Shown: piece after piece, positions 4,106 through 4,604 of the stretch
How the letters are laid out: the number at the start of each line of letters is the position of its first letter
Numbering within the stretch: position 1 is the first letter of the stretch
IMG/VR virus record: IMGVR_UViG_2690316347_000014
Location: 1 to 4,604 of that record
Direction: 5' to 3' (one strand)
From: a virus
Taxonomy: Duplodnaviria; Heunggongvirae; Uroviricota; Caudoviricetes
DNA length: 4,604 nt
Notes under the pieces: model-generated
What the model saw: the letters and a program-made list of their open reading frames with translations, nothing else
The model's database searches: none
What the model was told of the DNA's origin: nothing
Made by a program: the position numbers and the translations under genes

Positions 4106-4577
4106 AATTCGCAATCTGGACTGTTCAGCAAAATTCACTGAGCACAATTTTGTGTCGAGCGAATACACCGACTCAACCGGGCGCAAACTCCCAATGTACC
4201 AAATCACCAAAAACGGCTTCGTTTTCCTGGTGATGGGCTTCACGGGCAAAAAAGCCGCCGCATTCAAAGAGGCATACATTGCTGAGTTCGACCGCATGGA
4301 GGCCGAACTGCGCCAGAATAACACCCCACCTGCTGACAAGATGATTCCGGGTGATGGTCGCACTCTGGTTGTTCACTTCGACAAATTCGGCAATGTCGAA
4401 TTCACCGAAACCGTTCCTGATGGCGCACTGGTCTGTCCCCTGGAGACTTTCCGGTTTTATCTGGAAAAACAGGGATGGACTCTTGTTAACCGGGGCGCAA
4501 TTAAAAATATGACTGTGGAACAATTACTTTTGAGGTGTACTGGCAATAGCGGACACTACCATTTGTTCTTTTTTTAA
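4095..4577 (+). CDS. Rha-family phage regulatory protein, internal fragment (N-terminus replaced by the IS orfA remnant, last 15 codons and stop supplied by the IS terminal repeat)
   Basis: ..DKIRNLDCSAKFTEHNFVSSEYTDSTGRKLPMYQITKNGFVFLVMGFTGKKAAAFKEAYIAEFDRMEAEL matches the conserved Phage_pRha N-terminal domain from memory, but its first roughly 30 residues are missing. The ATG at 4095 is formed at the IS/Rha junction and has no SD. From 4531 the reading frame runs into the terminal repeat. Confidence 0.65.
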   Translation: MLDKIRNLDCSAKFTEHNFVSSEYTDSTGRKLPMYQITKNGFVFLVMGFTGKKAAAFKEAYIAEFDRMEAELRQNNTPPADKMIPGDGRTLVVHFDKFGNVEFTETVPDGALVCPLETFRFYLEKQGWTLVNRGAIKNMTVEQLLLRCTGNSGHYHLFFF

Positions 4578-4604
4578 GCAGCCATCTGATGATATTTTTC
4601 CCTG
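4531..4604. mobile_element. Right copy of the 74-bp terminal inverted repeat; likely the terminus of an IS3-family element in inverted orientation relative to the left copy (tip at 4531)
   Basis: Exact reverse complement of 1-74; starts TGAGGT at the inner boundary; truncates the Rha-like ORF. Confidence 0.6.

Follow-up and report, generated by a model that had tools for sequence, protein, structure and literature searches.

Two inverted IS600 copies very probably bracket a degraded Rac-like prophage segment in a Shigella sonnei-type chromosome

Introduction

Elements of the IS3 family transpose by a copy-out/paste-in route, in which the DDE transposase OrfAB is produced by -1 frameshifting and a circle with abutted ends is formed. 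The first description of one of these elements, IS600, was reportedly that of Matsutani et al. in 1987, from Shigella sonnei. IS600 belongs to the IS3 family and has a target sequence of 3 nt (PMC9397093). It is also one of the five IS that have expanded in all Shigella species, and its recent activity in S. sonnei has been high (Hawkey et al., 2020; PMC7373316).

The DNA analysed here, called the window throughout, is a stretch of 4604 nt filed as a virus of the Caudoviricetes. Its likeness to IS600 consists of a match of 74/74 positions at the 3' end of the element, together with the TG...CA termini, the imperfect inverted repeats, the frameshifted orfA/orfB pair and, for the left copy, a 3-bp target duplication. 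The element itself shows no differences from IS600, and the window holds only two tips of 74 nt each and a dead fragment of 290 nt. The remainder was compared with a region that we take to be the Rac-type racR-ydaS-ydaT-ydaU-ydaV-ydaW region of E. coli K-12. The order and the families of the genes are the same (CI-like, Cro/YdaS-like, YdaT, YdaU-like, the DnaC-like YdaV, and DUF977). Unlike in that region, the ydaU-like and ydaT-like genes are frameshifted, the rha gene is truncated at both ends, and IS600 brackets the module.

Results

A repeat finder returned a perfect inverted repeat of 74 nt at the ends of the window (1-74 against 4531-4604, 100% complementary), enclosing a spacer of 4456 nt. 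The left arm is a 100% match to positions 1468-1541 of the reference locus L001, the end of an annotated IS600 that is complete there (L001 278-1541, 1264 bp). Positions 1-74 carry nt 1191-1264 of the element on the plus strand, with the 3' end of orfB and the right terminal inverted repeat (IRR); the tip, CCTCA, ends at 74, and the body of the IS lies to the left of the window. The same terminal part of a second copy, nt 1191-1264, occupies 4531-4604 on the minus strand, with its tip at 4531 and its body to the right of the window. The original prediction, made from the letters alone, had taken the repeats for IS3-family ends, and this was borne out by the identity of the 74-mer with the 3' terminus of elements annotated in RefSeq under the product name 'IS3-like element IS600 family transposase' (protein WP_085948186.1; this annotation is the source of the name IS600). 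The inward-reading frame that it placed about 44 bp before the tip, ending in REKYHQMAA, is the 3' end of orfB: it is encoded at 2-31, and its stop codon (29-31) lies 43 bp from the tip at 74.

The full-length element has an orfA of 100 aa, an A7 slippery run at nt 316 and an orfB that ends in REKYHQMAA and a stop codon, and its CDS in L001 is annotated with a 'programmed frameshift'. Its termini are TG...CA. The left inverted repeat (IRL, TGAGGTAGCCTGAGTTTAACGGACACTCC) and the IRR (TGAGGTGTACTGGCAATAGCGGACACTACC) match at 20/30 and 23/40 positions, and are thus imperfect inverted repeats. Read from its inner tip, the arm in the window starts with TGAGGTGTACTGGCAATAGCGGACACTACC, and the complete copy in L001 starts with the sequence found at position 3808 of the window, TGAGGTAGCCTGAGTTTAACGGACACTCCT. 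The resemblance of tip and 3808 had been given as 20 of 30 ungapped matches, and counting returned the same figure, for which the binomial probability is 2e-6 for one random pair. Apart from 3808, no position of the window on either strand reaches 18 of 30 matches with the tip 30-mer. The IS3-family size and orf architecture come from the full-length copies found at these junctions and not from the window itself, and Pfam domains HTH_Tnp_1, rve and rve_3 were recorded for the adjoining genes.

Among complete E. coli genomes the 74-mer was found at 5871 places, on chromosomes and plasmids, in 2837 of 5426 genomes and at most 43 times per genome. The exact 38-nt IRR is present in dozens of copies in the chromosomes of S. 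flexneri SFBU1023 and E. coli ECMA0423, and elsewhere among the scanned species-representative genomes in three short contigs only. These three (L036, L039 and L051) are a 1380-bp contig of Streptomyces sp. UG1 with a coverage of 1.3 and short contigs of two metagenome-assembled genomes assigned to Bacteroidetes and Proteobacteria; most likely they represent Escherichia/Shigella contamination or a binning error.

In extended sequence the IS is present beyond both arms. The full window aligns at 99.8% to a complete chromosome (CP044151.1, locus L006) and to an 80-kb draft contig (L009), and both carry IS600 on each side of the exact 4456-bp segment, as had been foreseen for two inverted copies flanking a prophage fragment. 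We therefore read the arms as the IRR ends of two inverted IS600 copies, with IRR tips facing inward, and the 4456 bp between them as part of a decayed Rac-like prophage in a chromosome of the Shigella sonnei type, and we put the probability of this reading at about 96%. Judging from other genomes with the same junctions, the copies in the source strain would be full-length, and the segment would be oriented as in one or other of those genomes.

The left insertion could be compared with its empty site. In L006 the filled site reads CCCGTAC, then IS600 (+), then TACAGAGG, while in L002, L004 and L007 the sequence passes from CCCG directly to TACAGAGG, with a single TAC (CCCG-TAC-AGAGG) and no IS. 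The inner copy of this 3-bp target-site duplication, TAC, is at 75-77 of the window; a duplication of this length is the hallmark of IS600. The left position is occupied by a full 1264-bp IS600 in L006 and L009; the insertion is shared by the window, L005, L006 and L009, and L004, L007 and L008 lack it. It cuts a prophage gene of 118 codons, of which the first 43 remain at 72-203 on the minus strand, ended by the TGA of the IS tip (72-74). The small ORF whose stop had been ascribed to this TGA does end there (72..260, minus strand); as called mechanically it extends upstream to 260, and the intact homologue, WP_001343130.1, was placed at L002 2773-3129 by translation alignment. In exact look-ups, the truncated 43-aa product had no match and the 62-aa version of the ORF matched the source contig. 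The left copy is a simple insertion into the 118-codon gene, after codon 43, with duplication of TAC, as in ordinary IS3-family transposition. As a baseline, identical 3-bp flanks were counted in 10 of 27 distinct full-length IS600 copies of two Shigella-type chromosomes, against a chance expectation of 0.42.

No target duplication was found at the right copy, the flanks of which are TTT and GGG. A search for such duplications at each copy had been suggested, and it succeeded on the left side only. The absence is commonplace for IS600, with 17 of the 27 baseline copies lacking a duplication, and here it is accounted for by the loss of the adjoining 2212 bp. The right outer flank in L004, L007 and L008 (beginning GGGATTAGCG) aligns to L002 at 10654, and the inner flank stops at L002 8441; relative to L002, the stretch from ydaE to most of a recE fragment is missing outside the right copy. 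This loss may be due either to an IS-mediated adjacent deletion or to recombination between two IS600 copies, and the original insertion event of the right copy cannot be reconstructed, the duplication being absent. A full IS600 occupies the right position in L007-L009 (10437-11700). In L004-L006 (10437-12867) only nt 98-1264 of the right IS600 remain, and a second, complete IS600 follows immediately in the same direction; the truncated copy is given as a single 391-aa ORF by one gene caller.

The right tip at 4531 sits 11 bp before the stop codon of rha, and the last three residues of the protein, SLK, are replaced by 15 IS-derived codons. The reading of a Rha-like ORF 15 codons into the right copy was correct in this sense: past the tip, the ORF 4095..4577 has one junction-spanning codon, then 14 IS-encoded codons (LRCTGNSGHYHLFFF) and TAA. 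The statement that genes are truncated at both junctions holds for the left gene, which keeps 43 of 118 codons, and for rha, which loses its last three codons there, but the main truncation of Rha, the loss of 134 N-terminal codons, is at an internal junction (4097/4098) and not at the right-hand repeat.

This junction is the edge of a third piece of IS600. Positions 3808-4097, on the plus strand, are a dead fragment comprising nt 1-290 of the element; they include the left inverted repeat, which begins TGAGGTAGCC, and 75 orfA codons. The 'independent' left end of the original prediction is a true IS left end, but it is the IRL of the same element rather than of another. The fragment is identical at 290/290 positions to the IS600 copies of L004-L009 and at 289/290 to the L001 reference copy. 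Its orfA remnant lies in an ORF at 3872-4105 (Pfam HTH_Tnp_1, E = 6.9e-21); the frameshift site and all of orfB are missing, and the A7 run at IS600 nt 316 falls past the break. The fragment is fused to codon 135 of rha with a 2-nt overlap (TG, 4096-4097), and, compared with L002, the prophage has lost about 1.28 kb here, along with IS600 nt 291-1264. As one endpoint lies inside the IS, we infer an ordinary deletion rather than a transposase-made junction. Of a third, older IS600, only nt 1-290 survive, joined to the middle of rha by the TG-overlap deletion. The internal junction was spanned in none of the 5426 complete E. coli genomes, and among the searched genomes it occurs in S. sonnei-type assemblies only.

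Downstream of the fragment, the chimeric Rha' ORF (4095-4577, plus strand, 160 aa) combines Rha residues 135-279 with the 15 IS codons. It was recognized by Pfam as Phage_pRha (E = 8.6e-22), and in BLASTP 124 of 145 residues were identical to the intact 282-aa Rha of L002 over residues 135-279. The ATG of Rha' was created at the IS600/Rha deletion junction, and orfA' (77 aa) and Rha' are therefore pseudogene remnants. The exact Rha' protein is encoded in S. sonnei 53G, in several complete chromosomes and drafts, and in 99 blocks of the collection. The record HE616528.1 is S. sonnei 53G (PMC5447701).

The segment between the left tip and the dead fragment (78-3807) is an immunity/replication module of a Rac-like lambdoid prophage, as indicated by Pfam and by the RefSeq annotation of L002, an IS-free prophage of E. 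coli FDAARGOS_944. The interior (75-3807) is 99.25% identical to L002 3001-6730, where DUF977, ydaV, YdaT, Cro/CI, an HTH repressor and DUF1391 are annotated; Pfam agrees. On the minus strand of the window we find a DUF977 gene (261-683), a DnaC/YdaV-like ATPase (698-1444), a YdaU-like initiator (1451-2243) and a YdaT-like gene (2321-2742), the latter two frameshifted, and a Cro-like gene (2726-2953). On the plus strand are a CI-like repressor (3030-3437) and a DUF1391 gene (3640-3795). The flanks in L004 and L005 contain integrase, xis, gam, Q-like and lysis genes, and the prophage adjoins modABC.

Several smaller features were observed in the interior. The YdaU-like gene is split into ORFs at 1451-1720 and 1902-2243. 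Within it the hexanucleotide TCTTCC is repeated five times (1799-1830), giving a run of Glu on the minus strand, and its copy number varies: against the count in the window, it is lower by one unit in L006 and L009 and by two in L002, and higher by one in L007 and by two in L004. A run of eight T at 1927-1934 has one additional T in L004 and L007 and two fewer in L002. The YdaT-like gene lacks one T of the L002 sequence near 2704 and is thereby split into 101 aa and 58 aa, against 140 aa in the intact form. A 20-bp palindrome, TGTAACGC-N4-GCGTTACA, occurs three times with a spacing of about 200 bp (1855-1874, 2065-2084 and 2257-2276), twice inside the YdaU-like replication gene and once just upstream; these are candidate iterons or operator sites. 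Two inverted 16-mers, GTAGAGAAACCTAAGT at 2990-3005 and ACTTAGGTTTTTCTAC at 3509-3524, are 94% complementary and flank the CI-like repressor gene, and may be operator sites.

Discussion

The window is the reverse complement of a whole draft contig (CXDU01000201.1, assembly GCA_001248965.1, 4604 bp), which ends inside a multi-copy repeat. This raises the question of whether the inverted terminal repeat might be purely an assembly artefact, with one IS600 copy or none adjoining the segment. Repeats do confuse assemblies of this kind, and in four contigs (L010-L013) the internal IS600 fragment is joined to flanks from different parts of the chromosome. Several findings speak against such an origin. 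Both junctions, CCTCA to TACAGAGG on the left and ACTTT to TGAGGT on the right, are contiguous inside the contig, and both are found again in L006, a complete chromosome, and in L009, the draft contig of 80 kb; three further complete chromosomes, L004, L005 and L007, have the right junction. Moreover, the IRR meets the segment in opposite orientations at its two ends, which a single IS copy could not do. We therefore regard a purely artefactual repeat as very improbable.

Only the length of the arms, 74 nt, is an artefact: it marks an assembly boundary and is not biological, and the arms stop there because the contig does. Further draft contigs that share the right junction end 88 or 107 nt into IS600, while in complete chromosomes, including that of S. 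sonnei 53G, the inverted repeat runs for 1167-1264 nt. The contig comes from short reads, and its assembly stalled in the multi-copy IS600, 74 nt into each arm. Collapse of IS600 in the assembly thus explains the identical inverted ends of the contig.

The contigs L010-L013 deserve a separate remark. To the left of 9714 they show four different flanks (the hpa operon, an integrase fragment beside modC, and others) joined to IS600(1-290)-Rha'. These joins are probably repeat-induced misjoins through the 5' end of IS600; real rearrangements are possible.

Two inverted copies of one IS around a 4.46-kb segment also have the generic architecture of a composite transposon, in which segment and IS copies would have moved as one unit. 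The left IS600, however, has its own TAC/TAC duplication and is absent from the colinear L004, L007 and L002, so that it must have inserted alone into a pre-existing prophage. Furthermore, the outer flanks do not match (TAC on the left against GTT or GGG on the right) and share no duplication, and every recovered locus is the same prophage beside modABC. Movement as a composite unit is thus hardly credible. A non-mobile repeat, for instance a duplicated stretch of a gene, with only a chance likeness to 3808, is favoured by nothing except the shortness of the arms and can be dismissed almost entirely. The 74-mer ends annotated transposase genes in thousands of chromosomal and plasmid records, the left site is known both filled and empty, with a 3-bp duplication, and the tip and 3808 proved to be the two ends of one annotated 1264-bp element, so that a chance resemblance was rejected.

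The genomes that carry the locus differ from one another. Relative to 53G (L004), L006 has the left insertion and a deletion between two direct IS600 copies (L004 12869-15874). In L009 the window segment is inverted with respect to both flanks, and the outer flanks have changed places and are reverse-complemented. Recombination between inverted IS600 copies would be expected to give this arrangement; as L009 is a draft contig, a misjoin is possible. In L005, positions 75-3804 of the window are lost, and the IRR of a full IS600 is followed by GAC and then by the IRL of the dead fragment (L005 8447-10003). The arrangement IRR-3 bp-IRL is similar to an IS3-family circle junction, in which the ends abut, or to an insertion targeted beside an IS end.

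With L006 and L009 in opposite orientations and the segment deleted in L005, it is conceivable that the IS600-bracketed segment is a unit that recurrently inverts and is deleted in S. sonnei populations, although we consider this unlikely. If it were true, the L005 junction would mean that IS600 had inserted preferentially beside an IS end and that a circle-like IRR-3 bp-IRL junction had been recreated. Preferential insertion next to an IS end has been reported for IS911.

What is seen here is already known biology. The locus shares with the IS-driven decay described for Shigella strain-variable insertion sites, gene inactivation and deletions (PMC7373316). The present case is one specific locus, with a polymorphic left insertion, deletions and an inversion. 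The variation fits the published expansion of IS600 and the genome degradation in S. sonnei. The locus is thus a textbook example of IS600-driven prophage decay, of little importance beyond correct annotation: the small ORFs at the junctions and the orfA'/Rha' pair should be read as IS-generated pseudogene remnants and not as new genes. Genomes vary in the left insertion, the deletions and the inversion, and the locus could therefore serve to mark strain lineage.
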